A DNA stretch of 63,500 nucleotides, the filler included. It is 5 parts of 5 records of this genome, joined end to end, with 100 filler letters (N's around TTAATTAATTAA, not from the genome) between each part and the next. Parts side by side here need not be neighbours in the genome. Positions count along the whole stretch, not along the records: positions 1 to 26,223 come from SRR31156797_6871; 4 more parts are not named here. The stretch is one strand, 5' to 3'. The notes beneath the pieces were generated by a model. The model had not been told where the DNA came from. It did not search any database and saw only the letters and a list, made by a program, of their open reading frames with translations. Below are positions 1-57,006 of this stretch, one piece after another (position 1 is the stretch's first letter; every line of letters starts with the position of its first letter). The position numbers and the translations under genes are program-made.

Positions 1-2400
1 TTGTCTTTCTACTTCTTCTTTTGCTTTTTGCTCTTTTTCAGAATCACTCTCGTTGAAAATAAGATTCTCTTCATATAAAGACTTAACACTTCCCACTTGC
101 TCTACAACAGGGAAGATATTTTCATTTTCTAATACAAATTTATTTACTGTATCTTCTAGATTAAAATAGTTTTCATACAGTCCATAAACAAGTTTAATTA
201 AACTTCCATTATCACCATATCTAAAGAAAAATGAGTTTTCATAAATATCATTTTTTTCTACAAAGTTTTCAAGTTTTTTAAGACTTGTAAAAGATGAGAT
301 ATTCAAAGTAAACATACTGTCACTTGAAGACAAAAATTTATTTTTAAACTCTTCATTAGTTGTAAAAATCTTTTTTTCTGGCGCTTTTATAATCTTTTCA
401 ACAACTTTGATTTTTGTTTTTGCTTCAGGTTTTTTTATTTCTAAACCATTTATATATTTTTCATATAATGATTTAATATCTTTTATTTTTCTGATTTCAA
501 AACTTTTTTCTATTTTTTTATTTTCAAAAGTTTTTAGATATTCTTGTGCATCCTCTTTTGTATCAAAGATGTTGTGAGCTAATTTATTTTTGATTTTATA
601 ATTATCTACAACGGCATAAGAAAAAGAGTTTTCATCAATCTTATTCTTAACCATAAAATCAAAAGATGTATAAATAGAATCAAAGTCCCCAATAACTACT
701 GTAAATTTTTCATCATCTGTTTCTTGAAAAAGCTTAACAAAGTTGTTTATCTTTTCCTCTAAAGAAAGTTTTGGGAGAGGTATATCTAGAACTTTTTCTT
801 CCTCTTTTTTTGCTTCATCTTTTTGTTTTAAGATATCATTTTTATCTTCTTTTTCTGTTTCGTTTTTCTTGTCATTTGTTAAAGATAGTTCTATCCCATC
901 TTCGGCTATAACAGTTTTTTTATAATCACTTTTTGAAAAGTCAATAAATTTTGGGTTTTGAGGGTCGACATCAAAGAATGATGCCAAATCACCAGTTAAC
1001 TCTAAGATATTAAAGAAATTTACAACTTGACTCTTTTCAAAGTTTACAAGCTCTGTTTCTGCTGAGTTTAGTTGTCTTTGCCCTTGAAGTAAAGTTTGTA
1101 AATCTTGTTCACCTAATTTAAACGCTTCCCAATATGCTGCAACCATTTTTCTAGATGATTTTATCTCTTCGATAGTACTTTCTAAAGCTTGACTTATTGA
1201 TTGTAAAGAAGTATGTATTTTAGATAGATTCCATCTGATTTTTTTCTTTTCCTCTTCAAGTTTATAGTTTAGGTCTCTGATTTTACTATTTGATTCTAAG
1301 ATTTTATTTTTATCTCTTCCACCATTGAAAAGGTTATATTTTAAAGTAACACTTCCACTTAAATCTGTTTCATCGATTTCAGAATCTTCACTTTCATAAG
1401 TTTTTCCATAAGATAATTCTAACCCAACTTCAGGTTGAAATGATGATTCATTTTTCTTTTTATTAAATTTCTCAGATTGAATAGATTTATAATAGTTTAT
1501 CAACTCTCTATTTTGGTCTAATGCTCTTTGATATAAAGTATCAAACTCAGTCAATGTTATATTGAAGTTTTTTTCATAAGGCATTGTTTTTTGAAACTGT
1601 GTTCCTACAATATACTCATAATATCTAAGTGCTTCTATAAATTTTGATTTGATTCGAACAAGTTTAGTTGTTGCGTTTGCAACACTTGCTTTAATTGATG
1701 TTAAATCTGCAATTGAAGCTGCACCATTATCGTATTTTGTTGTAACAATTTTCAATATTCGATTTAATTTTTTCATATTTCGTTCATTAACCATCACTGA
1801 ACGACTTGCAAAAACTACATCAAAATATGCTTTTATAGCTTTTTTTATCTCTTCATCCAATTTAATTTTATATTGGTTTTTTGCTACTTCAAGTTTTTTT
1901 GCAACACTTTTGATATTATAATTAGTTGCATTTCCAGAATAAAGGTTTTGTCTTAGTACAAACTCATAATTATCATCATTGTAATATCTATATTTTCCAC
2001 CCTCTTCTTCACCTGGTTTTGACCTTGTTCTTCCTAATTCATACTGAAAGTTTACAGTTGGATAATAATCTGCAATTGCATTTTTAACTTTGATTTCATA
2101 CTGAATTACATTTTCTCTTGAAGATTTTAAAACATCACTTCTTGATAATGTTTCTAAAACCACATCTATTAACTTGACTTTTGTATAAAGCTTTGTATCT
2201 AAGTCTGCATTTTTTTCTAATGCTTTTAATTTAGCAGCAGATGGTGATTCTGGAATGTAATCTTTTTTTACACTCTTTAAAATACCTTTTTTACCCTCAA
2301 TTTGTTTTAGTTTTTCTTGAGGAATCAAATTTAAGTCATTTTCATCATTCAACGCAAAAACTGATGAAGTAATAAAAAAAACTAATACTATATATTTCAT
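1..2400 (-). CDS. TolC-family outer membrane channel of the T1SS with a long C-terminal extension (two SPOR-like segments); 3' end runs off the window
   Basis: Absent from the ORF track because there is no stop in the window; translated by hand. ATG at 2400 after a GGGG RBS-like motif; signal peptide MKYIVLVFFITSSVFA; OEP motifs YYPTVNFQY, LRQNLYSG, YDNGAASIADL, LKYNLFNGGRD, FKLGEQDLQTLLQGQRQL. Frame is open for 800 codons to position 1. Confidence 0.9.
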   Translation of the reverse strand, partial: MKYIVLVFFITSSVFALNDENDLNLIPQEKLKQIEGKKGILKSVKKDYIPESPSAAKLKALEKNADLDTKLYTKVKLIDVVLETLSRSDVLKSSRENVIQYEIKVKNAIADYYPTVNFQYELGRTRSKPGEEEGGKYRYYNDDNYEFVLRQNLYSGNATNYNIKSVAKKLEVAKNQYKIKLDEEIKKAIKAYFDVVFASRSVMVNERNMKKLNRILKIVTTKYDNGAASIADLTSIKASVANATTKLVRIKSKFIEALRYYEYIVGTQFQKTMPYEKNFNITLTEFDTLYQRALDQNRELINYYKSIQSEKFNKKKNESSFQPEVGLELSYGKTYESEDSEIDETDLSGSVTLKYNLFNGGRDKNKILESNSKIRDLNYKLEEEKKKIRWNLSKIHTSLQSISQALESTIEEIKSSRKMVAAYWEAFKLGEQDLQTLLQGQRQLNSAETELVNFEKSQVVNFFNILELTGDLASFFDVDPQNPKFIDFSKSDYKKTVIAEDGIELSLTNDKKNETEKEDKNDILKQKDEAKKEEEKVLDIPLPKLSLEEKINNFVKLFQETDDEKFTVVIGDFDSIYTSFDFMVKNKIDENSFSYAVVDNYKIKNKLAHNIFDTKEDAQEYLKTFENKKIEKSFEIRKIKDIKSLYEKYINGLEIKKPEAKTKIKVVEKIIKAPEKKIFTTNEEFKNKFLSSSDSMFTLNISSFTSLKKLENFVEKNDIYENSFFFRYGDNGSLIKLVYGLYENYFNLEDTVNKFVLENENIFPVVEQVGSVKSLYEENLIFNESDSEKEQKAKEEVERQ

Positions 2401-2414
2401 ATAACCCCTAAGCA

Positions 2415-3173
2415 CTATTTTTTTATCCTAATAACCAAATATCCATTTTCTTTATTTATATCTTCTTTTACATCTGTATCAGATAATAAATCCACTCTAA
2501 CATCTTTTTTCTCATATCCTAGTTTTCTTATAAGGTTTCTTGCCCCAATTGACCTTGCTAAAGATATTTGTTTTGATATTGTTGCACTTACTCGCCCTTG
2601 TACATCTGCAGCATTTATCAAAATTTGATGTTCTCCATATTTATTTCTTGCTTCTATTATGAAATCTTTTAATTGTTTTGTAATAGTATTATCAAAGAAT
2701 ATTTCATCCCCTTTAAAAGTTACAATAAAGTAATCATCAACATTAATAATTTGTTGTTTAGATTTTTTATCATCATCTTTTCTATCTTTTACATCAATAC
2801 CACCAGCTTCAATTTCTGATTCCTCTTTCTCTTTTGCTTGAACAGTCCTTTCTTGAATGATTTTTCTAAGTCTTATAATCTCATTTTGCATTTTTGCAAC
2901 AGATTGAGTACTTGTAGTACTTTCTGTTTGAACATTAGGTGTTGGAACTTGCTCTTGAAACAGTTTAACAGTTCCTTCACTTGGATTGTCATTTACTATC
3001 AAATCATCTGTTGCAATTGACCCTGTATATGAAACTTTATATTTAAATTGTGCATAATATCCAAGGTTTACAAGTACAACTAGTAAGAATAAAAGCATTA
3101 CTAGAATTACTGATGAGAAAATATCAACAAATGATGGCCATGGGTTAAACTCATCTTCACATCTTTTTGCCAT
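2415..3173 (-). CDS. SiiA/MotB-like inner-membrane channel subunit with periplasmic OmpA-like domain
   Basis: N-terminal EDEFNPWPSFVDIFSSVILVMLLFLLVVL is a single TM with the conserved Asp (D17), closely matching the Salmonella SiiA N-terminus as I recall it (EDESNPWPSFVDTF). C-terminal 'ISLARSIGARNLI' resembles the OmpA-like LS-xx-RA helix. Confidence 0.8.
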   Translation of the reverse strand: MAKRCEDEFNPWPSFVDIFSSVILVMLLFLLVVLVNLGYYAQFKYKVSYTGSIATDDLIVNDNPSEGTVKLFQEQVPTPNVQTESTTSTQSVAKMQNEIIRLRKIIQERTVQAKEKEESEIEAGGIDVKDRKDDDKKSKQQIINVDDYFIVTFKGDEIFFDNTITKQLKDFIIEARNKYGEHQILINAADVQGRVSATISKQISLARSIGARNLIRKLGYEKKDVRVDLLSDTDVKEDINKENGYLVIRIKK

Positions 3174-3185
3174 TTATAAACCTAG

Positions 3186-4325
3186 TTATTTTTTCTCTAA
3201 TTTATCTAATCGAGTATTCAATGACTCAATTAACTCTAGTAAAAGTTTATTATTCTCTTCTTGTAAAGATAAACTTTTCTTAATACTTCTATGTTCAGCT
3301 AAGATTACATTTGAAACTTCTTGTAATGATTCTTCCATAACTGAAGCATTTGAGAATTGATTTACATTCATCTCTCTTAAGCTTGTAACAACATTTTCTA
3401 AAAGCAGAGATTCTTTCTCTTTTGTTTTATTATTATCAACCATACTTTCAGAGATAAGATTATATACATTTTCTGCAGCTCTGTTTGATTTATCAAGTTT
3501 ATCGGTGAAGTCTCCCATAGTGTCAATAAATACATCTAAGAACCCTTGCATATTGCCTCCACCTATATTTTGGTTAGCAACTGCTGAAATACCTAGTTCT
3601 GTTCTTGCTTGCTCCATTGCATCTGAAGACTGAGAATCGATAATCTTACCTTTCATCCAATCTTCAACATCTTGAAGGAAACCTGCTTGATTTCTAGTAA
3701 GAATATATTGCATTACATTCAAAATCACCGCTGATGCAACACCAAATAAAGAAGAAGCAAACCCTATTGACATACCGCCAAGTGGTCCAGAGAACTTAGT
3801 CATAACTTCGCCAATATCAATATCATCTCCACCAAAAGAAAGAATAATCGCACCCATCTCATCAATTGCAACTAAAAGACCTGTAAATGTACCAAAAAGT
3901 CCCAACATAAGAGAGGTTCCAACGAAAAAATTCGTATAACCTTTTTGATTAAAGAACTGTTCATTTAGCCATTCACTTACATTTTTAGCTTCATCTTGAG
4001 TAAAATATAAAACACCTTTTTGTGCTCTTTTATTAAACATATGTGCAATAGTTGCTGGGAAAACCCCTGTAATACCTTGAAGATAGAACTCTAAAGCTTT
4101 TCCTTTTTTGTATGCTAAAATACCAAATGTACCAGATAGCATAGTAAGTTTTATTGCTGCTTGATAAAGTATTAGTAGTCCAATAGAAAAGATAGTTAAA
4201 ATAGCAACATTAAATGTAAGTGTTGCTAGAAAGAAGCTTGTAATTAACTGAATATTAGAAAAAACTAAAAACAGAATAAATAATAGAAATATAAAATATA
4301 TTTTTAAGATTTTTATACGTCTCAT
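3186..4325 (-). CDS. SiiB/MotA/TolQ/ExbB-like proton-channel subunit with cytoplasmic coiled-coil tail
   Basis: N-terminal TMs, then LMLGLFGTFTGL ... GPLGGMSIGFASSLFGVASAVIL (MotA/ExbB signature helices), then a helical tail. Lies 12 bp upstream of the SiiA-like gene. Confidence 0.85.
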   Translation of the reverse strand: MRRIKILKIYFIFLLFILFLVFSNIQLITSFFLATLTFNVAILTIFSIGLLILYQAAIKLTMLSGTFGILAYKKGKALEFYLQGITGVFPATIAHMFNKRAQKGVLYFTQDEAKNVSEWLNEQFFNQKGYTNFFVGTSLMLGLFGTFTGLLVAIDEMGAIILSFGGDDIDIGEVMTKFSGPLGGMSIGFASSLFGVASAVILNVMQYILTRNQAGFLQDVEDWMKGKIIDSQSSDAMEQARTELGISAVANQNIGGGNMQGFLDVFIDTMGDFTDKLDKSNRAAENVYNLISESMVDNNKTKEKESLLLENVVTSLREMNVNQFSNASVMEESLQEVSNVILAEHRSIKKSLSLQEENNKLLLELIESLNTRLDKLEKK

Positions 4326-4334
4326 CTAGACACC

Positions 4335-5288
4335 TTAAAACATAAATAATAAGATTGAGATAACCAATCCTAATGCAACTGTAGTTACTGTTTTTGTCAT
4401 ATTATCAACAATATTAACAAAAGCACCACTACCTTCAACTGTTTCACCTATTATAACTAAGCCTATGATATTACCCTCAATATCAGCGACTTTTTGTACA
4501 GCTTTGAAATATGTATCGTCTACATAATATCCATCTTCTAAAAGCTGTCTGTAAGCATCTTTACCTTCATCAATAATTTTTGCAAAAAATTGTCCGTCAT
4601 ATTCTTCTTCTTCAACATATAAAGTGTCTACAACTTCTCTATACTTACCATCTCTTGCTTTTATTGATAGTCTATTTAACATTCTTTCTTCAATCATAAA
4701 CATAAAGATTAAATCTTCTTTTGCATAATCTACTTTAAAATTATGTAATTCGTCTTTTAATTCTAAAATCCCAATAAGTCTATCATCTTTGATAAGTGGT
4801 TCAATGTAAACATAAAAAATACCATCTGATAATACTTCAAGACCATAAGCTTTGTTTTTAGAATTTATTACAGAGTTAATATCACTTCTATATTGATTTA
4901 CTTGATTAAAAATTGGATAAAAACTAAGTTGCATTGTGTTAAAACCATTTTCTTTAAATCCATTATTAAATTCACTTATAATGTTTCCAACATTTACTAA
5001 ATTATTATTTTCTATACTAGTAATTAAATCATTATTAGTTTTTGCTGTAATCATGATTTTTTTAAGTGTTTGTTCTTTTTGACTTACTCTATTTTTATAA
5101 TTTTTAATATAAGTGTTAGACATATTTACATATACATCTTTTGAAACACTTTCCGTCATATGAGTTAATAAATACAGAGATAAAAAAATACCTGTAATTG
5201 AAACACCAGCTAAAATTGTAAACCATAATCCCTTGTTTGATTTCAAGTCAGCAATAAATTTTTGCAGAAATTTGAAGAAGCTAAACAT
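4335..5288 (-). CDS. Membrane-anchored Cache-type sensor domain protein without cytoplasmic output domain
   Basis: TM near residues 22-42, periplasmic Cache-like region (AYGLEVLSDGIFYVYIEPLIKDDRLIGILE; VADIEGNIIGLVIIG), second TM at the very C-terminus, then stop. Confidence 0.65.
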   Translation of the reverse strand: MFSFFKFLQKFIADLKSNKGLWFTILAGVSITGIFLSLYLLTHMTESVSKDVYVNMSNTYIKNYKNRVSQKEQTLKKIMITAKTNNDLITSIENNNLVNVGNIISEFNNGFKENGFNTMQLSFYPIFNQVNQYRSDINSVINSKNKAYGLEVLSDGIFYVYIEPLIKDDRLIGILELKDELHNFKVDYAKEDLIFMFMIEERMLNRLSIKARDGKYREVVDTLYVEEEEYDGQFFAKIIDEGKDAYRQLLEDGYYVDDTYFKAVQKVADIEGNIIGLVIIGETVEGSGAFVNIVDNMTKTVTTVALGLVISILLFMF

Positions 5289-5395
5289 TAATTAACCCTT
5301 AAAATAATATATTAAGTATGTATATTATTTAAATTTCCCTTTTATCTAGATGAAAATATAAGAGATTGGAAAAAAAGTAATAATTTATTTTGATA

Positions 5396-6670
5396 TTACT
5401 GTTCACCCATTGCATTTCTACTTATATCTTTTAGTGGTTTAATTATATATTGAAGTATAGTTTTTTTACCTGTAAGGATGTTTATATTTGCTATCATCCC
5501 CGGCATTATAGGCAAATCAGGTGCAAATTGATTTGTATCAACTTTTACTTTTACAAGATAATAAATTGTACCATTTCTATCTTCAAAAGAATCTGGTGAA
5601 ATTGATATCAATTTTCCACTTAATAATCCATATTTTGAAAAATCATATGCAGTGATTTCAACAGATACATCTTGACCAGCCCAAATCTGAGCTCTATTAC
5701 TTGTACCTACTCTTGCTTCAATAGTCAAAGACTCATCAATTGGTGTAATTTCTGCTAATTTATCACCAGATTTTACAATTCCGCCAATTGTATAAAAATA
5801 TAACTTATTAATAATTCCATCAACAGGAGAAACTACATCTTTTCTAAGTTCTCTATCTGTATTTGCTTTATTTTTTTCTATTAATTTATTTATTTCTGCT
5901 TTTAGTGTTGAATACTTTTGTAAATGTTTAGACTTTATTTCAGATTTTACTGTTTCAATTTTTTTCTTAGCCTCTTGAATCTCTTCTTTTATAATTGGAA
6001 TATTATTTCTTGTTTCAGACAGCTTTGTTACTATATTTTGTTTTTTTGAAAGTTCTGCAATATACTCTTTTTTTGAAACAACTTGTTTTTTGTATAAAGA
6101 CTCCAAAATTTTCATATTTGCTTGCGCTAAATTCAGTTCTAAAGATAAATTTTCAAATTTTGTTTCTGCTTCTTTTAGTTTAAATTCTTTTTGTCTCAAT
6201 TGATCTTGAGCTATTGAGATTTTTGTTTTTCGCGTTTTTAAATCTTCAAAAAATATTCTTTTTTCATTTGCAATAATATCTGGTATATTTTCAATTAAAT
6301 CTTTTGGAAAAATAATATTTTCTTTCTCATCAATTGAAGCTTCCAATCTTTGAGCTGCTGCTCTAAAAGCTAATAAATCTATCTCTTTTGATTTTAAATC
6401 AGCTTTAAAAAACTCATTTGACAAAGTATAAATAGTCTGACCTTTTTTAACTTCATCCCCTTCACTTAGTTTAATATCTGAGATTATTCCACCCTCAAGG
6501 TTTTGTAATATTTTTGTTTGACCTGAGGGAACAACTTTTCCTGTTCCTCTAACAACTTCATCAATTTCACTAAAAGATGACCAAGTAATAAAAGCAATAA
6601 AAAATAACATTATTGGAACTACAGAAACATAATAATTCCATTTTTTTTCTTCAAATAATAAATTACTCAA
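5396..6670 (-). CDS. HlyD-family T1SS membrane fusion protein
   Basis: IDEVVRGTGKVVPSG, LEGGII...EGDEVKKGQ, long coiled coil, VVSPVDGII, AYDFSKYGLLSG, IMPGMIANINILTGKKTILQYIIKP. Confidence 0.95.
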   Translation of the reverse strand: MSNLLFEEKKWNYYVSVVPIMLFFIAFITWSSFSEIDEVVRGTGKVVPSGQTKILQNLEGGIISDIKLSEGDEVKKGQTIYTLSNEFFKADLKSKEIDLLAFRAAAQRLEASIDEKENIIFPKDLIENIPDIIANEKRIFFEDLKTRKTKISIAQDQLRQKEFKLKEAETKFENLSLELNLAQANMKILESLYKKQVVSKKEYIAELSKKQNIVTKLSETRNNIPIIKEEIQEAKKKIETVKSEIKSKHLQKYSTLKAEINKLIEKNKANTDRELRKDVVSPVDGIINKLYFYTIGGIVKSGDKLAEITPIDESLTIEARVGTSNRAQIWAGQDVSVEITAYDFSKYGLLSGKLISISPDSFEDRNGTIYYLVKVKVDTNQFAPDLPIMPGMIANINILTGKKTILQYIIKPLKDISRNAMGEQ

Positions 6671-6675
6671 TACTT

Positions 6676-8778: not shown

Positions 8779-8781
8779 AGT

Positions 8782-10575: not shown

Positions 10576-10583
10576 CTATAATC

Positions 10584-19500: not shown

Positions 19501-22500
19501 CTTCCACCATTTTGGTATCCATCATCTGTAGCTTGTTCTAAACCTAGGTCTACAATAACTGCATTTTCACCTGTATTGTTTACATCAATATTACTAAAGT
19601 CTAAAGTATCAACTCCATCTCCACCAATAAATGTATCAACACCTTGTGAAGCATAAAAAGTATCATTTCCACTATAACCATCTAAAGTATTAACTTCAGA
19701 GAAATCATCACTTCCTTTTATAGTATCATTATTTCTTGTACCAACAACATTTTCAATACCTTCAACACTATCATATCTTGTTGCATCTCCTACAACTTTT
19801 ATCTCTTGTTCATTGTTTGTTGTTGAGTCATTGTCATCTAAAGACAAATCAACATTAATTGCTGTGGCGTCAGTTAAATAACTATAATTTACAGTGTCAT
19901 TTCCACTATCTGTATGTGTTCCAGCAGTTACACTTCCACCATAAATCATATCATTATCAAGTCCACCTAAGATAGTATCATTATCTCCTTGTCCTTCAAT
20001 AACATCTGCTCCTAATCCACCAATAAGAATATCGTTTCCGCCATTTCCTAAAAGTGAGTTATCAGAATCATCTCCAACCATTGTATCAGCAAGATTTGAA
20101 CCTATAACATCTTGAATATCATAAAGTCTATCTGTACCTTCACCTACAGCTGTTTGTGTTGCAATAATTGTAGTTGTTTCATTTAATAAACCAATAGTAC
20201 TTGATGTTGAAGATAAGTTTAGTAGTATTGAATGTGATGAAGAAGAATAATCAACTACATCTCTATCAGAATCAGCACTTGATACATTTAAAGCATTACC
20301 ATAAATAAAGTCATCACCTGCACCACCTGCAAATGTATCTGCACCAGTTTGACCAACTAAGGTATCACTTCCTGCTCCACCGTAAATAGTATCGCCTGAT
20401 GCTCCACCATCAAGTATATTATTGTTTCCATCACCAATAATAGTATCAACAGAAGAAGTTCCTGTAATATTTTCAATTCCTGTAATAAACTCTGCATTTG
20501 CAAAACCATCATCTTGTACTCTATATGTTGATTCTGTTCCTAAAACTTGAGTTGCATTTAAATCAACTTTTATCCCTTGTGTACCATCACTGTAATCAAT
20601 TGTATCAGAAGAACCATCTCCTCCATCAATATAATCTTGTCCCTCTAAACCTTTAAAGATATCATTATCTGCTCCACCAAATAATGTATTATCTTTATCA
20701 TCACCAGTAATATTATCTGCTCTTTCTGTACCAATTACATTTTCTATTTCTCTAAGAACATCAGTATTTCCATTTGATAAAGCAGTTCCTTCTGCTGCAT
20801 TTGAACCATTGTTATCAGTATCTAAATCAACAGTTACACCATAAGCTAAATCTGAGAAGTCTACTGTATCTTCATCTGCACCACCATTTATAACATCTGC
20901 CGCAGCTCCACCTCTAATAGTATCGTTTCCACTTCCAGTTGTGATTGTATTTGATTGTGCATCTCCATAAATAGTGTCATTTCCTGAACCTGTAATAATA
21001 TTTTCAACACCATCTAAATACTCAGCATTTCCATATCCGTCATTTTCAATTCTATATGTGTTATCACTTCCGTCTGTTTGTGACTTTGTCATATCTATAA
21101 CTACATTTTCACTTCCCGTTGTAAAGTCAGCTGTATCAACTCCACTTCCACCAATTAGCCTATCTTGTCCATCAAGTCCTATTAGGTAATCATTTCCTGC
21201 TCTACCTTCAAGGATATTACCTGAGTCGTTACCTGCAAGATAATCTCCTTTATCAGAACCTATAATATTTTCAATATTTGTAATAGTGTCATTTCCATAT
21301 TCAGCATGGATTCTTTGTGAAGTTGTTATTGATAAATCTACTTCAATACCAAGATATGCATCAACTCCACCATTAGTTGCATCACCATCATTTGAATCAA
21401 CAACTCTATCATCTCCAGAATCGTCATTTATTGCAATTGAACTATAATCAAGTGTATCACTAGTACCATTTACAGTTCCAGCATCAGTATCATCTCCATC
21501 AATAATATCATCGCCTGCACCAGCATAAATATAATCGTTTCCAGCTCCACCTTCTACAGTATCATCTCCTGCCATTTCTGAAATTGTGTCATTTCCAGCT
21601 AGACCTTTTAAAATATTTGCAGAGTCATTACCAGTGATTTGGTCAGCCTCTCCACCTAAGTTTGTTCCTGTAATATTTTCTATTGAGTTAAAAGTATCAG
21701 TTCCAATTGATGTTCCAACAGCAAATGAGTTTGCAATATTTGCTTGGATAGATGCACTTTCATTACTATAATCAGCAGTATCACTTCCTAATCCACCAAT
21801 TAGGTTGTCATTCCCTGCTCCACCAATTAGTGTATCATCTCCATCTCCACCATCTAAAGTATCAACTCCTGCTCCACCATCTAAAGTATCACCATCTTCA
21901 TTACCATATAAAATATCGTTATCATCTCCACCTTGGATATAATCAACACCAGAACCACCATAAATAGTATCAAGTCCTAAACCACCAATTAATATTTCAG
22001 TACCAGTTGCATTTGCTCCACCATCGATATAATCATCACCTGCTCCACCATTAATAGTATCTGTACCTGCATTACCTATTAAACTATTTGCATCAGAATC
22101 ACCAGTAATTGTATCTGATAATGATGTACCATTTATATTTTCAACATTTACTATTGTATGGTCATCAGCATTTCCATCTACACTTACACTTGAAACCACA
22201 TTATTATTTAGTGTTACTTCTACACCAGTTGTTGAAACAGAAACATTACTATAATCAACAGTATCACTACCTCTTGTTAAATCAGATTCTGTTCCACCAT
22301 CTATTTCATCTGCTGTAAATTCTGTACCGGTAAATAAGTCATTTCCAGTACCACCTATCAAGCTATCAGCATCTGCTCCACCTATTAAAGTGTCATTCCC
22401 TGATCCACCATCTAAATAATCTTGTCCTGCTCCACCTGATAATTCGTCATTTCCTGCCATACCATAAAGCGTATTTACAGCAGTATCACCAGCAATAGTG

Positions 22501-25500
22501 TCATTTGATGTACTTCCTCTTACATGTTCTATATTTGAAATAATATCGTCAAAAGTTGTACCTGCAATATCAACTGTAGCTTGTGTATTTGTATTTAGTG
22601 TAACTTCTATGGCACTATTTGTAGAGCTGTAATCTATCATATCTCCATTTATATGGTTTCCACCATCAATTGTATTTACAACCCCACTTTCTGTAACAAA
22701 GGTATCATCATAATCTGAACCAACAACATTTTCTACTGTAATAAGTCTATCTACAACTCCTCCAGCTTCTGTTGCAGTTCCTGCTTCTAAATCTACATTT
22801 ACTCCACTTCCATTATCATAATCGTATCGTACCTCATCAACGCCATCTCCACCAACAAGTGTATTAGATAATGAACTACCAGTAAATGTATCATTACCAC
22901 TTGTTCCTATAATATTCTCAATTCCATTTATAATATCATCATCACCTGTAGCTAAATCAACTGTTGAATCTCCACTTGCAAGTAAAGTTGCAGTTACACT
23001 ATTTGTATTGTCTGTTATAACACTATAATCTACAGTATCACTTCCAGTTCCACCAATTATTGAATCAATACCATCAGTTTCAGAAGTAGCTATAAATGAG
23101 TCATTACCTTGATTTCCAACTAATGTATCAGCACCTGCATCACCATAAATAAAGTCATTTCCGATACCACCATCGATTGAATCGTTATCTGCTCCACCAT
23201 GTAGTTCATCACTTCCTGCTCCACCTAATAGTGTGTCTTCTCCTGCAAGACCATAAAGTGTGTCATCATCACCCATACCACTTAGAGTATTAACATCACT
23301 ATTACCAGTAATTGTGTCACTATCTAAATTTGAACCTATAATATTTTCTATACCGTAAAGATAATCTGTACCTTGGTCAGCACTTGTTGCAGTACCTTCA
23401 TTGTTGCCTTCAGCAAGATTTACAGTCATTCCTGTAATTGCTTGAGAGTAATCAACTGTATCTCCTGCACTTCCATTGCTATCTGCAGTTGCTGTACCAC
23501 CATATACATAATCAGTACTGTTATCTGCTTGAACAAAAGTTATAGTATCATCACCATCTTCACCATAAATAGTATCTGCTCCTAAACCACCATTTAATAA
23601 GTCATTTGAGTCTCCACCATAAATAGTATCAGTTCCAGCTTCACCTTCAATAGTATCGATACCTTGCTCACCATAAAGGATATCTTTTCCATCTCCTCCA
23701 TAAATAGTATCCGAACCATCACCACCTCTAATAAAGTCATCTCCTGCTCTACCATCTAAAGTGTCATCTCCTGAACCAACACTATTTGCTTCATTTGCTC
23801 CACCATAAATTTGGTCAGAACCATCATTTCCAGTAATTGAATCATTTCCACCCATACCTTCAACTCTATTAATGTTTGTATCACCACTTAATATATCTCT
23901 ACTATCTGTACCTCTTAAGTGTTCAATACCTGTTAGAGTGTGAGTATTTCCATCTATATCAACTGTAACAGTTGAACCTGTTGATAAATCAACTGTAACT
24001 CCACTTGATAATCCATGATAGCTAACAGTATCATAATCAGCTCCACCAATTATTTCATCACCAGTTGCATCTCCATCTGTATCTAAAAGGAATAAGTCAT
24101 CACCTGCTCCACCATTTAAGTAATCAGCTCCACCAGCACCTTTTAAAGTATCATCTCCACCTTGTCCTAAGATGCTATTATTTGAAGAGTCTCCTGTAAT
24201 AGTGTCATTACCAGTATTTGAACCTTTTATGTTTTCAATTCCATAAATAGTATCAGTTTCACCACTTGTACCTACTGTAACACTTGCACCTTCACCTAAA
24301 GTAGTTATAACTCTTGCTTCTGAAGTATAATCTATAGTATCATTTCCTGAGTCACTACCAACAGTACCACCATAAATTACATCATCTCCTCCAAGACCAC
24401 TAAATGTATCATCACCAGCTCCACCTTGAAGCGTATTTGCTACAGAACTACCTGTTATAGAATCATTACCACTTCCACTAATTACATTTTCAAAAGAGCT
24501 TATTGTGTCATTGTCTGTAACTGAAATATAAGCACTCTCAGTATTTAGATTAATTTGTGCATCAGCAGTTGCATACTCATAAGAAACTGTATCATTACCT
24601 GTTCCAGTCCCATTTATAGCATCACCATAAAGATAATCAATACCCTCTTCTCCAGAAATAGTATCATTTCCACCATTTCCTACAAGTGTATTAACATCTG
24701 CATTTCCAGAGATTACATCATCTCCACTTCCTGCAAAAATATTTTCAATATTTCTTACAGTATCACTATCTCCTGAAGTAATTGTTAATGTTGCATCAGT
24801 ATCATTCCCAAGTAAGTTAACAGCAATATCATTTGAAATAGCTTGATAATCTAAAGTATCACTTCCTGTTCCACCATCAATAACATCATTACCATCAGTG
24901 TTACTAGTTGCATAGATTGTATCATCTCCACTACCTGCATTGATATTATCATCTCCATTGTATCCCGTGATAGTGTCATCATCTGCAAGAGTTGAGATAA
25001 TATTATTTGCATGGCTTCCATAAACTATGTCAGAAGCATAATTTGAACCTATAACATTTTCTATACCATAAAGTATATCATCACCTTGACCTTGTTCTCC
25101 ACTAGCTCCATCAGATGTACCAACAGCGTCATAATCTCCAAACTCATTGTCAATATTTAGATTTGTGTCTAATGTAATAGTTAAACTCTCTAAAGCATTT
25201 GTGTAATCTACTGTATCACTTCCTGAATCAGTTGTTGCATCACCACCATAAATAATGTCATCTCCAACATCACCTGTTAGAGTATCATCTCCTGCTTCAC
25301 CATATAAAGTATCATCTCCTGCTTCACCAGTGATGGTATCATTGTCAGCTCCACCATATAGATTATCAGAACCAGCTCCACCTTTGATATCATCTGCTCC
25401 GGCATTACCTAAGATTGAGTTATTTGCAGAATCACCTTGTATAATATCTGAATCTTGTGTCCCTGATACATGTTCAACATTTAACAATATGTCTGTACCA

Positions 25501-26222
25501 CTTTGTCCTTGAACAATAACACTAGAAGGGTTTGTTGTATCAAGAGTTAAATCTATACCATTTTCCCCTGCTACTCCATCTCCTGTTATTACAGAGTAAT
25601 CAACCCAGTCATTAACTCCTGCCCCACCATCATAAGTGTCAGCCCCATCATCAGTCCAAGTATCTAAAACCCCATCATTATTTGTATCTGTACCTGCGAT
25701 GAATCTATCAGAACCAGCATTTCCTGTAATAATATTATCTTGAGTTGAACCTATAAATGTATCGTCTAATCCTGAACCTATAACATTTTCTATACTTGTT
25801 AAAATATCATTATCTGAAGTAGCAATTGTTTGTGATTGTGTTGTGCTTAAATTTACATCCACACCAGTAGTTACATAAGTTTCATAAGATATTGTATCAG
25901 TTCCAGTTCCACCATTTATACTATTATCATAAGCACCTTCTCTCATAATAATAGTGTCATTTGAATCTCCACCAATTACATTTTCAATATCTACTAAAGT
26001 GTCATCTCCGATACCTGTACCTGTCGCTGTTCCATCATCTAAATCTACAATAACATTTAATGATTCATTTTCATAAGTTACAGTATCGCTGCCATCTCCA
26101 CCATCAAGATGGTCATCTCCTCCATCACCTCTTAATGTATCATTCCCACCTTCACCTTTTAAAGTGTTATTATCGCTATCTCCACCAATGAAGTCATTTC
26201 CTGCACTACCTGTAATATTTTC
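10584..26222 (-). CDS. Giant Ca-binding RTX repeat protein (T1SS substrate, probable adhesin or surface-layer protein), >=5212 aa, 5' truncated by contig end
   Basis: Very many GGxGxDx(L/I) nonapeptides and recurring DTVDY...VDL...IENVIGS modules. The frame stays open 92 codons upstream of the track's ATG (25946) to the contig edge, with the same repeats (ENITGSAGNDFIGGDSDNNTLKGEGGND). Confidence 0.93.
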   Translation of the reverse strand, partial: ENITGSAGNDFIGGDSDNNTLKGEGGNDTLRGDGGDDHLDGGDGSDTVTYENESLNVIVDLDDGTATGTGIGDDTLVDIENVIGGDSNDTIIMREGAYDNSINGGTGTDTISYETYVTTGVDVNLSTTQSQTIATSDNDILTSIENVIGSGLDDTFIGSTQDNIITGNAGSDRFIAGTDTNNDGVLDTWTDDGADTYDGGAGVNDWVDYSVITGDGVAGENGIDLTLDTTNPSSVIVQGQSGTDILLNVEHVSGTQDSDIIQGDSANNSILGNAGADDIKGGAGSDNLYGGADNDTITGEAGDDTLYGEAGDDTLTGDVGDDIIYGGDATTDSGSDTVDYTNALESLTITLDTNLNIDNEFGDYDAVGTSDGASGEQGQGDDILYGIENVIGSNYASDIVYGSHANNIISTLADDDTITGYNGDDNINAGSGDDTIYATSNTDGNDVIDGGTGSDTLDYQAISNDIAVNLLGNDTDATLTITSGDSDTVRNIENIFAGSGDDVISGNADVNTLVGNGGNDTISGEEGIDYLYGDAINGTGTGNDTVSYEYATADAQINLNTESAYISVTDNDTISSFENVISGSGNDSITGSSVANTLQGGAGDDTFSGLGGDDVIYGGTVGSDSGNDTIDYTSEARVITTLGEGASVTVGTSGETDTIYGIENIKGSNTGNDTITGDSSNNSILGQGGDDTLKGAGGADYLNGGAGDDLFLLDTDGDATGDEIIGGADYDTVSYHGLSSGVTVDLSTGSTVTVDIDGNTHTLTGIEHLRGTDSRDILSGDTNINRVEGMGGNDSITGNDGSDQIYGGANEANSVGSGDDTLDGRAGDDFIRGGDGSDTIYGGDGKDILYGEQGIDTIEGEAGTDTIYGGDSNDLLNGGLGADTIYGEDGDDTITFVQADNSTDYVYGGTATADSNGSAGDTVDYSQAITGMTVNLAEGNNEGTATSADQGTDYLYGIENIIGSNLDSDTITGNSDVNTLSGMGDDDTLYGLAGEDTLLGGAGSDELHGGADNDSIDGGIGNDFIYGDAGADTLVGNQGNDSFIATSETDGIDSIIGGTGSDTVDYSVITDNTNSVTATLLASGDSTVDLATGDDDIINGIENIIGTSGNDTFTGSSLSNTLVGGDGVDEVRYDYDNGSGVNVDLEAGTATEAGGVVDRLITVENVVGSDYDDTFVTESGVVNTIDGGNHINGDMIDYSSTNSAIEVTLNTNTQATVDIAGTTFDDIISNIEHVRGSTSNDTIAGDTAVNTLYGMAGNDELSGGAGQDYLDGGSGNDTLIGGADADSLIGGTGNDLFTGTEFTADEIDGGTESDLTRGSDTVDYSNVSVSTTGVEVTLNNNVVSSVSVDGNADDHTIVNVENINGTSLSDTITGDSDANSLIGNAGTDTINGGAGDDYIDGGANATGTEILIGGLGLDTIYGGSGVDYIQGGDDNDILYGNEDGDTLDGGAGVDTLDGGDGDDTLIGGAGNDNLIGGLGSDTADYSNESASIQANIANSFAVGTSIGTDTFNSIENITGTNLGGEADQITGNDSANILKGLAGNDTISEMAGDDTVEGGAGNDYIYAGAGDDIIDGDDTDAGTVNGTSDTLDYSSIAINDDSGDDRVVDSNDGDATNGGVDAYLGIEVDLSITTSQRIHAEYGNDTITNIENIIGSDKGDYLAGNDSGNILEGRAGNDYLIGLDGQDRLIGGSGVDTADFTTGSENVVIDMTKSQTDGSDNTYRIENDGYGNAEYLDGVENIITGSGNDTIYGDAQSNTITTGSGNDTIRGGAAADVINGGADEDTVDFSDLAYGVTVDLDTDNNGSNAAEGTALSNGNTDVLREIENVIGTERADNITGDDKDNTLFGGADNDIFKGLEGQDYIDGGDGSSDTIDYSDGTQGIKVDLNATQVLGTESTYRVQDDGFANAEFITGIENITGTSSVDTIIGDGNNNILDGGASGDTIYGGAGSDTLVGQTGADTFAGGAGDDFIYGNALNVSSADSDRDVVDYSSSSHSILLNLSSTSSTIGLLNETTTIIATQTAVGEGTDRLYDIQDVIGSNLADTMVGDDSDNSLLGNGGNDILIGGLGADVIEGQGDNDTILGGLDNDMIYGGSVTAGTHTDSGNDTVNYSYLTDATAINVDLSLDDNDSTTNNEQEIKVVGDATRYDSVEGIENVVGTRNNDTIKGSDDFSEVNTLDGYSGNDTFYASQGVDTFIGGDGVDTLDFSNIDVNNTGENAVIVDLGLEQATDDGYQNGGSAVVDTIREIEVVIGTNGDDQLRGSSVANTLVGGLGNDTIVGIAGANLLQGEDGNDSITGGSNADTIEGGIGNDTLDGSQGNDSIDGGAGNDIINRYAATGDDSIDAGTGDDTIYSGEGSNTITGGTGSDTLTYEQITTTGITVNLGSGVSNDFGTVTVGSETDTLEDHIEIIKGSADTDTILGFNGTAQVGVDYSDTFYGQGSMDSIYGGIGDDTIYGENGDDTLSGQAGNDSIDGGAGTDTIDFADADVGVRVYLNQTDENNVAVAHHVMEDGFGGQDDVTSVEKVIGSAHDDIIKGTDDWNDINAGAGDDTIIATSGGDAIEGGSNTTGTGGGDWLSFEALNSAVNARMQDGQISGGLGSTTISGIENLLGTTYNDTLIGDDNNNSLDGNSGDDTLNGGNGSDYLFGNDGNDTLIGGDGVDTYDGGDGEDVISFYDIEASVDVNLQTSTVNEDGYGNTESGAISNVENIIGSLNYADRLTGDNNDNTIFGYGGNDTINGLGGFDTIYAGTGSDIINTGTDTDDTSEDVAFGQEGIDTFTGNFDKAVMYGDSVGGANLEEDWIDYSNSSNGITVDLSGKLTDSTYTLDSANDDIDGTYVKVINNDSTTDFDLISQIENIIGTDLVDTLGGVDTEDNSILAGDGDDTIFHSNSVGNNYVDGEDGSDWLSLEYYTENIDLNSSSNGIYNIENVLDRQSGASTTIWGSDVSNTFIMYDGNDQVIGRYGDDVYDLGDGDDNARAGGGSDTLIGGAGQDLLDYRNSYTGNSVKIILQDASIDLDDDGVADTSVSEQTTTITLSGLDTVNGDQEFFLVTDSRNETDYILKEADGTADFERFNLSNVDDTFVGDDGDNTVSSSQGNDTVLGMGGDDIINGNEGADLIFGGDGADVLRGDDGDDRLYGNAGDDNIAGGENNDTIWGGSGTNILSGDNGTDIIHDEEGTDTINGGNDEDTVIFKEGTQGVDVNLGLGTSTDAFGNSQTISNVENLTATSQDDILIGEDGVTNIIYGLGGNDTFTVTTNEEGKSDYIYGGDGNADKVILTSNLDGTAGDANSNILVDPDSDSTNYDITVDMLIDNNIEFVSSGTNNSTKMYDVENVDGSDKDDYIKADSENNTINSGAGNDYVQGLLGDDEINAGDGNDIVEGGAGNDTLDGGANIDTLVYTNATSGVTVNLDTGLSTGTSTGNDTISNFENIVGSNSSDTLTGDNSLTVGNTIYGQGGTDTIYGLAGDDELHGGDNDDYIDGGTGNDNMYGEAGDDTFITSAGDDVIDGGENSDTVDYTNATGPLNVTLTDSGVTTINIDGTDSLSNIENLTGTNSNDNITGESNNNTFIGNAGDDILVGAGGDDNLQGGTGDDTLYGGTGTNTIDGGEGGETTGDWINYTDVTGSVNIDLSAGTATGAVSDTISNIEHVQMGDSDDIVQGDIYNNSLLGGAGTDTLSVSSATGGVTFNVSNNDGTTNGAGVGTDNFESFENFIGSNNNDTFNTDAIDNITFNGEGGTDTVDYTSSSSNIDVTVNGSSTVTATDSVNTDTLNNVEKIISGSGDDTFTLNSVNNIDTLDAGAGTDSLSVTSSMDLSSVELINFEEILAQDGQVITVSATALNNENITLHTQGSGQIIVETTTNLDDHNFDNVTVNNESGTGTITLNVTSDIDLSSKNIEGTGTNIFDEFDVNSGVTLTVDATQVDGEIIDTVGNGDIIINATTTASDHDFDNLTNTGNGDITLNVDSSINLSSQNLGAINRYDVAASQTLTLLTTQLTSAMIIAGAGAIDLNSATTTENVDLSSINNDNFTGTLTLNDGSSDNNIIMSDKVDIVNLSSGNDTVNLGAGDDIVNITNTELSTSDSIDGGLGNDTLNINGTGNVDLTTVSSIETINLSDGSNTVTVGTLNSTIEGGSGADTFEFNIANLSSADVINGNNGIDTLRFLDNGTITANQLTNVDVENIELANGGNDITVGTKDFNITGGTGNDTFNYAIDNLSSNDVINGNGGTNNVTFSSSGQITSGDFSNVTNISDVNFANGDDEITLSASDSYLDGVSLNLGAGNNEVIFNGIETLDSSDTIVGGGTDTITFANSGSIDSADFVNVSGIDNINFASGNNTVTLSDNSLDTVDFVLDSGNDNINISSSNLSSADTIDAGTGTDSLNISDTSGTITYNDADFTNLNGFETLNLGDGSADTITIGTTQIAEAGFTNYNGRAGNDTFIVNSTSNLTSIDGGDNQDTLTINTDNLDFSSVSISNIETLNINGNTNLEGSLDASITALTVASGKTLTIDAASLNGVTITNNGTINITNLEANPSFDLSSISGNVNASWSGDGTFTGDVGTAALTIESGTMTVSTGTINTASSIVVNGTLVADASKIDSTTISGSGTLTVNNLETTNIDFSTINVNTINTSWSGTGTFTGDLTNVDTLSVDSGTMTVSDDILGTLNVTGNGSIVVQIDSDSSQNFSTLGLTGTETIQFTADSTFTGNFQNSQVLVDSGTTLTTDASLVSGRTVTNNGTVQVTNLDGTLNANLSTISGTVNTTWDGNGTFVGNLSGVDTLTVSSGTMQVDASTINSVTTITNDSILNITNLDSVTNMDFTKVTNNNTLNAQWSGTDTFTGDFTGLDNLTINSGTMSVDDSILGTLSVDGSGNLTVNADDSSMNLSNVNISGTTTINDSSSSTTIVGTSNDDILNLNSGNDTVNLGTGDDTVNVSSVTDLNTSDNIDAGIGGNDTLNITDSGVTIDSANLIDVSNFENLNLSSGDDTITFDNTTEFNNFTSEFTNINDAGGNDTLSFGNTSVNGDLDFSKLNDFENLNLSSSNDSITLSGDEPQNIDGLAGDDNFTLDFTSLDSDSFNIDGGANNDTVSVTGSTNSISLDTTFGDVDDFSNMETIDLTGMTFNTAADSSDGGTNAEWTLDGSLIDAWGNGTDDLIIRLNSSDASKIEFTDSSNNKFGGDDSDSTALSDGATYTLNDGNGGTVDVQIDLVTN

Positions 26223-26223
26223 A

Positions 26224-26323
26224 NNNNNNNNNNNNNNNNNNNNNNNNNNNNNNNNNNNNNNNNNNNNTTAATTAATTAANNNNNNNNNNNNNNNNNNNNN
26301 NNNNNNNNNNNNNNNNNNNNNNN
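26224..26323. other. Artificial contig linker
   Basis: 44 N + TTAATTAATTAA (stops in all frames) + 44 N; composition changes across it. Confidence 0.99.
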
Positions 26324-46781: not shown

Positions 46782-46881
46782 NNNNNNNNNNNNNNNNNNN
46801 NNNNNNNNNNNNNNNNNNNNNNNNNTTAATTAATTAANNNNNNNNNNNNNNNNNNNNNNNNNNNNNNNNNNNNNNNNNNNN
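46782..46881. other. Artificial contig linker
   Basis: N44-TTAATTAATTAA-N44. Confidence 0.99.
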
Positions 46882-52612: not shown

Positions 52613-52712
52613 NNNNNNNNNNNNNNNNNNNNNNNNNNNNNNNNNNNNNNNNNNNNTTAATTAATTAANNNNNNNNNNNNNNNNNNNNNNNNNNNNNNNN
52701 NNNNNNNNNNNN
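52613..52712. other. Artificial contig linker
   Basis: N44-TTAATTAATTAA-N44. Confidence 0.99.
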
Positions 52713-55700: not shown

Positions 55701-57006
55701 CCTCCGCCTGGAGCCGCTGCGCGGTGGAAAGCATGCGGTCGGCCGCAACGGTCGTCTCGAGTGTGACCACGGCCTTCTGCGCCTGCCGCACGCGGACATA
55801 CAGGTACGTGCTGGTGACGAAACCAACGAGCAGGATCGCCATCACAAACGCCGCGGTCGCCACTGGAACCCGGTGTTTGCGCAACAACTTGCAGAGGCGA
55901 TACGCAGCGGACTCCGGTCCGGCAATCAAAGGGACACCGGTGAGGTAGTTGCCGATGTCGTCACCGAACTCGTGGGCCGAATGGTAGCGGCGGGTGCGAT
56001 CCTTATGCATCGCCTTGAGAGGAATCCATTCCAGTTCGCTGTGCAGGCACCGGGTCAAGGCGGCCACATCGGTCCGGCGGCTGGCGGCAATGGCCCGCGC
56101 CCGTTCACCCAGCATCGAAAGGCGCGTGCTGGGCCTCAGCGGCTCTTCCTCGCGAATGATGCGCTGGATCTCATTGAAGGCCGCCGACCGGAGGGTATCC
56201 GGATCGAAAGGCAGGGCGCCGGTGAGCAATTCGTAGAGAACGGCGCCCAGCGAGTAGATATCGGTGCGCGTGTCGACGCCCAGGCCGCTCATCTCCGCCT
56301 GCTCCGGGCTCATGTACTCGGGCGTGCCAATCATCTCGGCGTAGCGCGTGAAGAGCGTCTGCTCGGTGAGTCGCTGGTCGGTGGCCTTGGCAATGCCGAA
56401 ATCGATGATCTTGGGCACGGGCTCACCGTCGTGGAGCGTCACCATGATGTTCGACGGCTTGAGGTCGCGATGGATGATCCCCTTCTGGTGCGCGTGGTGG
56501 ACCGCTTTGCAGATGGGGACAAACAACGCCAGCCGCTCCCGCGTGCTGAGCCTGTTCCGGTCGCAGTATTCCGTAATGGAGACGCCGCGAACCAGTTCCA
56601 TCACAAAGTACGGCCGCCCGGCCTCGGTCGCCCCGGCGTCAAAGACATACGCGATATTGGGGTGGTCCATCAAGGCCAGCGCCTGACGCTCGGCCTCGAA
56701 CCGGGCCACCACCTGCTTCGTGTCCATGCCCAGCTTGATGAGTTTCAGGGCCACGCGCCGGCGCAGGGGGACTTCCTGCTCGGCCATGTAGACCACCGCC
56801 ATGCCGCCCTCGCCAATCTTTTCCAGCAGCTTGTAGGGGCCAATGACCGTGCCCGGCTCCTCCAGCGGAACCGCGGGACCCCACGTCACCGCAGCGGCGT
56901 CCTCGGGTCGGGCCGCCAACTGCAGCAGACACTTCGGGCAGAAGCCCTCCGGCGCTTCGGCCGAGAGAGGGATGCCGCACTGAGGGCAGTGACTTTCCTG
57001 GCTCAT
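52713..57006 (-). CDS. Membrane Hanks-type Ser/Thr kinase: Zn-ribbon, kinase, TM, TPR, PD40/TolB-like propeller, TPR, LamG; 3' truncated
   Basis: Start [11 protein letters not shown] (RBS AGGAAAGG); [59 protein letters not shown] repeats; [10 protein letters not shown]...ITVSVW (LamG). Confidence 0.92.

Follow-up and report, generated by a model that had tools for sequence, protein, structure and literature searches.

Introduction

The gene cluster described here fills positions 1-26223 (contig SRR31156797_6871) of a stretch of 63,500 nucleotides, filler included, which is referred to in the following as the window, and is predicted to encode a type I secretion system (T1SS) for a giant RTX protein together with a MotA-like/MotB-like membrane protein pair. 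The closest characterized system is the one encoded by Salmonella pathogenicity island 4 (SPI-4), consisting of SiiABCDEF and CheM acting in trans, which is also the only characterized T1SS with a pair of the Mot/Exb/Tol type. SiiA and SiiB reportedly form a proton-conducting complex of the inner membrane that attaches to peptidoglycan and on which adhesion, but not secretion, depends. SiiA is composed of a transmembrane (TM) segment (residues 14-38), a disordered linker (51-92) and a peptidoglycan-binding domain (93-210; PMC12607715), and its residue Arg162 as well as Asp13 are reported to matter for invasion. Deletion of siiA and siiB leaves secretion of the giant protein SiiE intact and impairs adhesion (PMC12607715). 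How SiiAB employs the proton motive force (PMF) for assisting the T1SS is explicitly left as an unresolved question by these sources (10.1101/641415; PMC12607715).

A first-pass annotation of the window had stated that no characterized system with all parts of the present cluster was known. Taken literally, this still holds. The unusual core nevertheless has a clear precedent in SPI-4, which combines a T1SS and a giant adhesin with the MotAB-like pair SiiAB. In the following, the cluster is compared with its relatives and with SPI-4. That the module is composed and linked as described below appears very likely, and its interpretation as a Campylobacterota (Arcobacteraceae-type) T1SS cluster for a giant RTX surface protein, equipped with a SiiAB-like accessory motor, is regarded as probable on balance.

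Results

Gene layout and conserved linkage of the secretion cluster

Eight open reading frames (ORFs), all on the minus strand, fill the contig (Table 1), in agreement with the first-pass annotation, which had listed eight same-strand genes with gaps mostly below 15 bp and a single one of 107 bp. Starting from the RTX gene, the spacings are 8, 3, 5, 107, 9 and 12 bp, followed by a 1-bp overlap between the stop codon of the MotB-like gene and the start codon of the TolC gene, an arrangement also present in orthologues. The flanks are truncated as had been noted before, with the RTX gene being open at the right contig end and the TolC gene being cut at position 1.

For evaluating conservation, an alignment of MotA-like proteins (A1) was used to collect 103 relatives in species-representative genomes, of which the best 80 loci were kept. 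ORFs were called in these 80 loci and searched with the proteins of the window, and those 40 loci that are flanked by 8 kb or more in either direction were evaluated separately as a well-flanked subset. All 80 loci belong to Campylobacterota, namely Arcobacteraceae, Sulfurimonas, Sulfurospirillum, Sulfuricurvum and unnamed metagenome-assembled genomes (MAGs). The genes for the sensor-like, MotA-like, MotB-like and TolC proteins make up the invariant core, and among the 40 well-flanked loci, 15 contain the complete set of eight genes. The first-pass annotation had let its reading depend on co-occurrence of the accessory genes with the T1SS in relatives, and such co-occurrence is indeed seen, at the frequencies given in Table 1. 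The cluster genes stay together through no fewer than eight different arrangements. Besides the order of the window, these include a divergent orientation of ABC-HlyD relative to the sensor block, a convergent ABC-HlyD-GT group behind TolC, the glycosyltransferase (GT) and sensor genes placed after TolC, and the substrate gene located either upstream or downstream. Since the linkage survives so much rearrangement, a functional tie between the gene products is indicated.

Relatives of the MotA-like protein are numerous, with 690 at E ≤ 1e-3 in a word-indexed search and 845 clusters at E ≤ 1e-3, 43 of them at E ≤ 1e-30, in an exhaustive search of representatives. The best named ones derive from Halarcobacter and Arcobacter at 85-87% identity. 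Within the phylum, a MotA-like gene at E ≤ 1e-20 was detected in 12 of 301 sampled genomes, hence the module is an accessory one.

Two architectural types can be distinguished. In the first 50 loci (L001-L050), a short MotA-like protein of 366-395 aa goes along with a long TolC protein, which has 743-1505 aa in the 41 complete cases. Among 22 loci listed from L051-L080, 21 possess a long-tailed MotA-like protein (501-855 aa) and a plain TolC protein of 440-597 aa; the TolC gene of L075 runs off its locus, and L056 is an exception to this pairing of MotA tail and TolC length. The long tails behave as coiled coils. The inverse relation probably goes back to a single split between clades and is, therefore, a correlation and not a test.

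The 107-bp gap sits exactly at the edge of the invariant core, making two transcription units plausible. In some relatives, the ABC-HlyD genes are oriented divergently or convergently to the sensor-MotA-MotB-TolC block. A scan for promoters and terminators stayed at chance level (57 sites versus 60.6 expected) and is uninformative in such AT-rich DNA. Likewise, no contig from two runs guessed to be RNA spans the gap, the contigs from these runs being fragmentary over all genes of the cluster.

Table 1. Features of the cluster-bearing contig and occurrence of the corresponding genes in the Campylobacterota loci
Feature	Position	Strand	Remarks	Loci	Well-flanked loci
TolC-family outer-membrane channel	1-2415	-	long C-terminal SPOR-like extension; 805 codons visible, 3' end missing	74/80	39/40
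MotB/SiiA-like protein, 252 aa	2415-3173	-	TM helix, disordered linker, OmpA-like domain	78/80	40/40
MotA/ExbB/TolQ-like membrane protein, 379 aa	3186-4325	-	short C-terminal tail		
Two-TM periplasmic dCache-like protein (sensor-like), 317 aa	4335-5288	-	without cytoplasmic output domain	79/80	40/40
Intergenic gap, 107 bp	5289-5395	no strand	likely boundary between RTX-GT-ABC-HlyD and the genes from sensor-MotA-MotB-TolC onward		
HlyD-family membrane fusion protein, 424 aa	5396-6670	-	TIGR01843 and HlyD_3	52/80	31/40
T1SS ABC exporter with C39-like N-domain, 700 aa	6676-8778	-	TIGR03375 and Pfam	50/80	33/40
TPR and GT9-like glycosyltransferase, 597 aa	8782-10575	-	cytoplasmic; Pfam and ESM features	41/80	25/40
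Giant RTX substrate gene	10584-26223	-	open to 26222; 5212 codons visible, N-terminus missing	39/80	26/40
Contig linker N44-TTAATTAATTAA-N44	26224-26323	no strand	artificial, not biology; marks contig end		

The MotA-like/MotB-like pair

The MotA-like protein shows hydrophobic segments at about residues 4-22, 25-63, 134-165 and 184-205 and matches the ZorA (MotA/ExbB/TolQ) profiles of PADLOC at E 8.2e-7. In its family, Pfam MotA_ExbB (PF01618) is found in 19 of 32 members at E ≤ 0.01, with the orthologues L065 and L080 scoring above the cut-off. When the A1 profile was compared with the PDB, only coiled-coil matches originating from the long tails were obtained.

For the MotB-like protein, a single TM segment is predicted at residues 16-34. 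Invariant residues are N10, P11, V16, D17 and F19, located in or before this helix, and, within the C-terminal domain, S196, S204 and R207; D17 and the latter three residues are kept in 32 of 32 aligned sequences. An AlphaFold2 (AF2) model built from 32 sequences has a mean pLDDT of 71 and shows a TM helix at 15-48 and a region of low confidence at 51-135, whereas residues 140-252, for which the block pLDDT lies between 78 and 92, adopt a beta-alpha fold. The top Foldseek match of the model is 6qvp, the peptidoglycan-binding domain of SiiA (SiiA-PD), at E 1.6e-6 and TMt 0.83, and VIA alignment of the C-terminal domain with 6qvp results in Z 13.3 and an rmsd of 2.1 over 101 residues at 18% identity. 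The next OmpA-like entry reaches Z 11.5, and the domains of OmpA, Pal and MotB lie at Z 10-11.5. Hence, as modeled and at the level of fold, the C-terminal domain of the MotB-like protein is an OmpA-like domain of the peptidoglycan-binding type. The sequence profile of the family did not give any match in the PDB. A conserved S-L-x-R of the MotB-like family resembles the reduced peptidoglycan-binding motif of SiiA with its conserved residues Leu163 and Arg167 (10.1101/641415).

A complex prediction for residues 1-230 of the MotA-like protein together with the MotB-like and sensor-like proteins gave no verdict, with a score of 0.00 in a run that did not use alignments and had no controls.

The dCache-like putative sensor protein

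The 317-aa protein encoded between the 107-bp gap and the MotA-like gene has TM segments at residues 23-41 and 299-317. Its family is matched by dCache_3 in 12 of 32 members (best E 1.7e-8) and by sCache_3_3 in 5 of 32, and the family profile (A2) hits the PDB entry 3by9, annotated as 'Sensor protein', at E 9.6e-6, which we take to be a double-PDC domain of the DctB type. A single-sequence AF2 model of this protein is unusable (mean pLDDT 38), and single-sequence searches of the PDB with the dCache-, MotA- and MotB-like proteins gave nothing meaningful.

As a separate observation, MotA_ExbB is matched by the last TM helix of the dCache-like proteins in 4 of 32 family members (best E 9.8e-5), e.g., L065:16551-17516. 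This hints at a helix that may resemble the channel helices of the stator or pack with them.

The exporter, its adaptor and the TolC-family channel

The ABC exporter matches TIGR03375 (type_I_sec_LssB) with 749 bits at a cut-off of 693.1 and carries the Pfam domains Peptidase_C39, ABC_membrane and ABC_tran. C39 peptidases have their catalytic cysteine in the N-terminal stretch. In the first 60 residues of the present exporter a cysteine is missing, as in six of six full-length orthologues checked, and the C39-like domain looks inactive, judging from these sequences. The HlyD-family protein, possessing one N-terminal TM segment, is assigned by TIGR01843 (type_I_hlyD; 343.5 bits, cut-off 208.65) and Pfam HlyD_3.

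In the TolC-like protein, Pfam OEP is recognized at E 1.3e-39 (136.4 bits, cut-off 22) at residues 91-270 and beyond; the stricter TIGR01844 is matched with 171.5 bits, below its cut-off of 225.15. By family assignment, ABC, HlyD and TolC proteins are thus the predicted export conduit for the RTX protein. The TolC protein of the window is 66% identical to its orthologue in L001, and its residues from about 690 to 775 share 30% identity with the SPOR domain that Pfam calls in the latter. Among 13 long TolC orthologues scanned, SPOR reaches the cut-off in nine and misses it in L035, L009, L007 and L049. In the case of L049 (L049:11868-14522), the protein has instead of a cut-off-level SPOR domain a C-terminal SH3_3 domain (28.1 bits), and the wall-binding module therefore appears to be exchangeable. 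In a literature search that had most subscription journals outside its coverage, no account of a TolC-SPOR fusion or of this module was found.

The giant RTX protein and the TPR-GT9 protein

The visible part of the giant protein contains RTX nonapeptide repeats, with Pfam HemolysinCabind being detected in 51 stretches in all, 39 in the N-terminal half (E 1e-178) and 12 in the C-terminal half (E 1.2e-45). It is highly acidic, lacks cysteine and is rich in glycine (14.9%), aspartate (14.1%), threonine (12.4%) and asparagine (10.4%). The last approximately 1500 aa are without Pfam match, and the last 1512 aa did not match any PDB entry. At the DNA level, Tandem Repeats Finder identified only two small arrays in the gene, which is not a recent tandem array.

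The putative glycosyltransferase lacks TM segments. It starts with nine or so TPRs (best E 1.5e-60 among the TPR families), and Glyco_transf_9 is recognized at residues 441-540 with 24.5 bits at a cut-off of 22. In line with this assignment, 27 of the 30 nearest named clusters of residues 300-597, based on ESM features, are in the GT9 set. Its EQGFGD motif is kept in 20 of 20 aligned sequences. Comparison with the PDB gave nothing meaningful for the C-terminal domain as a single sequence and mostly TPR matches for the profile of the whole protein. A reading as an HMW1C/OGT-type enzyme (GT41) is unsupported, the catalytic domain scoring as GT9. A possible function is suggested by BAHT/TibC heptosyltransferases, which heptosylate autotransporter adhesins (PMC4358343).

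Besides, a gene for an FkbM-family methyltransferase lies near the GT gene in 16 loci, usually between the GT and RTX genes (e.g., L001:2899-3750), and is fused to the GT gene in L025:3044-5536 and L049:6482-8974; on the contig of the window it is absent. The position of FkbM beside the GT fits modification with a methylated sugar.

With these assignments, the labels given by the first-pass annotation, i.e., glycosylation, sensing, ion motor and peptidoglycan-anchored channel, are each backed at the level of family or fold.

Beyond the contig ends

At the left side, a 26,245-base contig of a further public run, which matches positions 3-11000, also stops at position 3, and there are loose ends at position 34. 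Position 1 thus probably marks a place where the assembly broke within a repeat.

The closest complete relative is a complete Halarcobacter MAG (G001), the MotA-like protein of which is 87% identical. Its substrate region (L090+L089+L001, C1 at about 1080889-1116002) is read as three ORFs in a row, each overlapping the next, with 4415, 6368 and 965 aa. Either a single gene of about 11,700 codons is broken up here by frameshifts, or the (long-read) assembly contains errors. For the N-terminus of this substrate, ESM features give a weak lead to BapA_N (score 0.91), a family present on 21% of cluster members; the recognition value was low. A 730-aa protein with TM, GGDEF and EAL regions (Pfam GGDEF, EAL) is encoded in this MAG by a gene overlapping the TolC stop codon, and its best PDB matches are 6pwj and 3pjw, both identified as LapD (PMC6890996). 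It is followed by a lipoprotein gene and a Sel1-repeat gene. Downstream of TolC, the LapD paralogue is found in 40, the lipoprotein gene in 37 and the Sel1 gene in 38 loci, all of them in the short-MotA group; in the long-tailed group (L051-L080) no LapD-like gene was detected in the locus.

Genes of the LapG family (Peptidase_C93) are present in five of five complete relatives, located elsewhere in the genome, where they adjoin a LapD homologue in L081, L083, L084, L087 and L088. A LapG-like ORF was not found in any of the 80 loci. Taken together, the operon-encoded protein is likely a LapD paralogue without a LapG of its own. The first-pass annotation had reported neither LapG nor LapD genes, and none is visible in the window; in relatives, however, the LapD paralogue stands directly after TolC and lapG-lapD pairs are encoded elsewhere. 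Judged from these sequences, the module is larger than eight genes, and a LapD paralogue is probably present here, too, beyond the contig end.

Other contigs of the window

At the right side, the contig ends at the linker listed in Table 1. The same N44-TTAATTAATTAA-N44 linker is also found at 46782-46881, 52613-52712 and 58241-58340, i.e., the window is a pseudomolecule in which at least five contigs are joined. The GC content changes from contig to contig, with 0.26-0.36 for positions 1-26223, then about 0.40 and 0.45-0.49 for the next two, which together range from 0.38 to 0.49, up to 0.66 (52713-58240) and finally 0.38. In view of the linker and these sharp shifts, the DNA to the right of position 26223 need not adjoin the cluster or share its organism.

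Positions 49478-51307 (minus strand), located on another contig with a GC content of about 0.48, encode a 609-aa member of the CotH kinase family. The high-GC contig (0.57-0.66) is nearly filled by one ORF at 52713-57069 (minus strand), which is open at the linker and whose product combines TPR repeats with a domain of the Ser/Thr protein kinase type. Compared with the Arcobacter-like contig, it is of foreign composition. At 59678-60838 (minus strand), a 386-aa protein with HD and PycTM (Pycsar effector) domains is a candidate anti-phage effector. The ORFs beside it, at 58545-59663 and 60884-63499, are without Pfam match.

Discussion

Proposed function of the module

Having SPI-4 as a guide, the following course of events can be proposed for the cluster. 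Prior to export, either the substrate or a partner might be modified by the glycosyltransferase while still in the cytoplasm, with TibC-type adhesin heptosyltransferases as precedent, and the substrate would then leave the cell C-terminus first via ABC, HlyD and TolC proteins. At the secretion complex, the MotA/MotB-like pair would represent a PMF-driven, peptidoglycan-anchored unit that sets surface retention versus release of the giant protein, as proposed by analogy with SiiAB acting on SiiE. The dCache-like protein may bind a periplasmic ligand and gate the motor unit through contacts between membrane helices, as this protein does not have any other output. SPOR domains would fix the outer channel to the wall, and in relatives, and probably also here past the contig end, the LapD paralogue could add an input from cyclic di-GMP (c-di-GMP). 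Control of retention and release in this manner is a tentative proposal, to which we give somewhat less than even chances. In its most specific form, it would amount to a ligand-gated mechanical clutch, in which the output-less dCache-like protein docks via its membrane helices on a 5:2 MotA/MotB-like rotor and the PMF-driven movement of the latter is passed to the HlyD/TolC assembly nailed down by SPOR, holding or freeing the possibly glycosylated RTX protein. This version is speculative and, taken as a whole, rather unlikely. If it were true, the cluster would offer a compact genetic model for ion-driven stators working on a non-flagellar machine, and for the role of SiiAB.

Several points weigh against the interpretation as a T1SS cluster with SiiAB-like motor and retention control. 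All gene functions are read from comparison of sequences and folds, and an adhesin role of the RTX protein is assumed. The MotA-like protein of the window has no Pfam hit itself, its assignment coming from the PADLOC ZorA profiles, the orthologues and the family profile; similarly, the dCache-like protein of the window, searched alone, matches neither Pfam nor any other family. On the extension of the window's TolC protein, SPOR (PF05036) is found at E 0.19 with 12.5 bits, under the cut-off of 21. The lead of SiiA-PD over other OmpA-like domains as a match of the MotB-like protein is modest, amounting to less than 2 Z units for a small domain. Regarding linkage, four of the 40 well-flanked loci (L036, L037, L050 and L059) are without ABC, HlyD and RTX genes within 10 kb, and the GT gene, occurring in only 25 of the 40, is not obligatory. 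N-x-S/T sequons in the giant protein are moderately enriched, with 161 compared to 118 ± 9 in shuffled sequences. Finally, the N-terminus of the substrate from the complete Halarcobacter relative does not match Pfam, with BapA_N being absent even at E 10, and its first 400 residues lack the LapG-site pattern [TAPS]AA[GVAS].

Alternative explanations

The LapD paralogue of the relatives is a further point on this side, since classical control by c-di-GMP and LapG could explain retention without a motor. Correspondingly, the cluster might be a Lap-type system with a LapA-like substrate, secretion by LapB/C/E counterparts and c-di-GMP-controlled proteolytic release by LapD/LapG, in which motor, sensor and SPOR domains only stabilize the envelope around the very large secretion complex by Tol-Pal-like tethering and do not take part in retention or release. 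Such a system would be in line with the gene for a LapD-like TM-GGDEF-EAL protein standing directly after TolC in 40 loci and having LapD structures as best PDB matches, with the pairing of Peptidase_C93 and LapD homologue in five of five complete relatives and with the ESM-feature lead from the relative's substrate N-terminus to BapA_N. This lead, however, suffers from the low recognition value mentioned above, and the substrate examined lacks both the Ala-Ala of a LapG site in its first 400 residues and a Pfam BapA_N domain. Moreover, the 80 loci are devoid of LapG-like ORFs, the long-tailed-MotA group keeps motor, sensor and T1SS without a LapD-like gene, and none of the evidence for Lap-type control is visible in the window itself. 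We therefore consider this explanation unlikely.

Less likely still is a role of the MotA/B-like unit in powering export itself, where PMF-derived mechanical work would help threading substrates of 5,000 to more than 11,000 residues and control after export would not occur. Overlapping stop and start codons tie the motor to the TolC gene, the substrates are huge, with more than 5212 aa here and 4415 + 6368 + 965 aa in the Halarcobacter MAG, and the Asp of the MotB-like TM helix is invariant, all of which would suit such a function; in Salmonella, however, secretion of SiiE into the supernatant is unaffected by deletion of siiA and siiB (PMC12607715). Very improbable indeed is that the MotA/B-like genes belong to an unrelated neighboring system, i.e., a Zorya-like defense or a TonB/Tol-like uptake system. 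This idea is prompted by ZorA profiles being the best library matches of the MotA-like protein (E 8.2e-7) and by the long coiled-coil tails in relatives, which are reminiscent of ZorA. Against it, none of the eight ORFs of the contig resembles ZorC or ZorD, the MotB-like and sensor-like proteins are without PADLOC match, and the pair lies between the sensor gene and the gene for the T1SS outer-membrane protein in 74 of the 80 loci, with T1SS genes remaining linked across at least eight arrangements. The Zorya reading was consequently rejected on context, with ZorC/ZorD partners missing and all eight ORFs of the contig being otherwise assigned. The T1SS cluster with a SiiAB-like accessory motor is thus retained as the preferred interpretation.

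Comparison with known systems

With Zorya ZorAB and other 5:2 motors of the Mot/Exb/Tol type, the cluster shares the match of its MotA-like protein to ZorA profiles and a B subunit with TM Asp and a domain of the peptidoglycan-binding type; in relatives, long coiled-coil C-terminal tails (501-855 aa in total) are shared as well. It differs in lacking genes of the ZorC/ZorD type, in its secretion context and in the short-tailed form found in the window type (366-395 aa in total). The BAHT heptosyltransferases (TibC/AAH) have in common with the present GT that a GT9-like cytoplasmic enzyme is encoded beside a secreted substrate of the adhesin type (PMC4358343). In contrast to BAHT, the enzyme here carries nine or so N-terminal TPRs and the substrate is predicted to be exported by a T1SS and not by a type V system. 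Glycosylation of a T1SS substrate, flagged here as a possibility, would be unusual.

The Lap systems of Pseudomonas and Vibrio (LapA/B/C/E with LapD/LapG) resemble the cluster in having a giant T1SS-exported protein of the adhesin type with dedicated ABC protein, membrane fusion protein (MFP) and outer-membrane protein (OMP), and in the LapD-like TM-GGDEF-EAL protein encoded after TolC, which is a feature of the relatives and not visible in the window. Differences are the missing LapG gene in the 80 loci and, for the substrate of the relative, the lack of an Ala-Ala of the LapG type among residues 1-400. To our knowledge, Lap systems do not possess a stator-like pair, an in-operon Cache protein, a TolC protein with SPOR domain or a glycosyltransferase.

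The agreement with SPI-4 comprises a T1SS with C39-like ABC protein, MFP and TolC-like OMP, the substrate of which is a giant surface protein that binds Ca2+, a MotA-like/MotB-like pair as putative accessory unit in the inner membrane and a putative periplasmic ligand sensor tied to this pair. It extends to the build of the B subunit with TM Asp, disordered linker and small OmpA-like domain of the peptidoglycan-binding type, for which 6qvp is the best fold match at 18% identity. On the other hand, the substrate here consists of RTX repeats and SiiE of BIg domains, and the putative sensor is an in-operon dCache-like protein without output domain, whereas SPI-4 uses a chemoreceptor. Further distinguishing features are the SPOR-type extensions of TolC, the TPR-GT9 protein, in relatives often accompanied by the FkbM methyltransferase, the additional LapD paralogue, lipoprotein and Sel1 protein of the relatives, and the occurrence in the phylum Campylobacterota. 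Salmonella is not alone in linking a stator-like pair to a T1SS; such a pair also belongs to a module that is conserved among Campylobacterota, both free-living and host-associated, which widens the list of machines served by motors of the 5:2 type. Compared with SPI-4, this module brings a putative sensor of its own and a channel with predicted wall anchoring. It occurs in two architectural types and at least eight arrangements of its genes, offering comparative leverage and alternative model organisms for the question of how SiiAB works.

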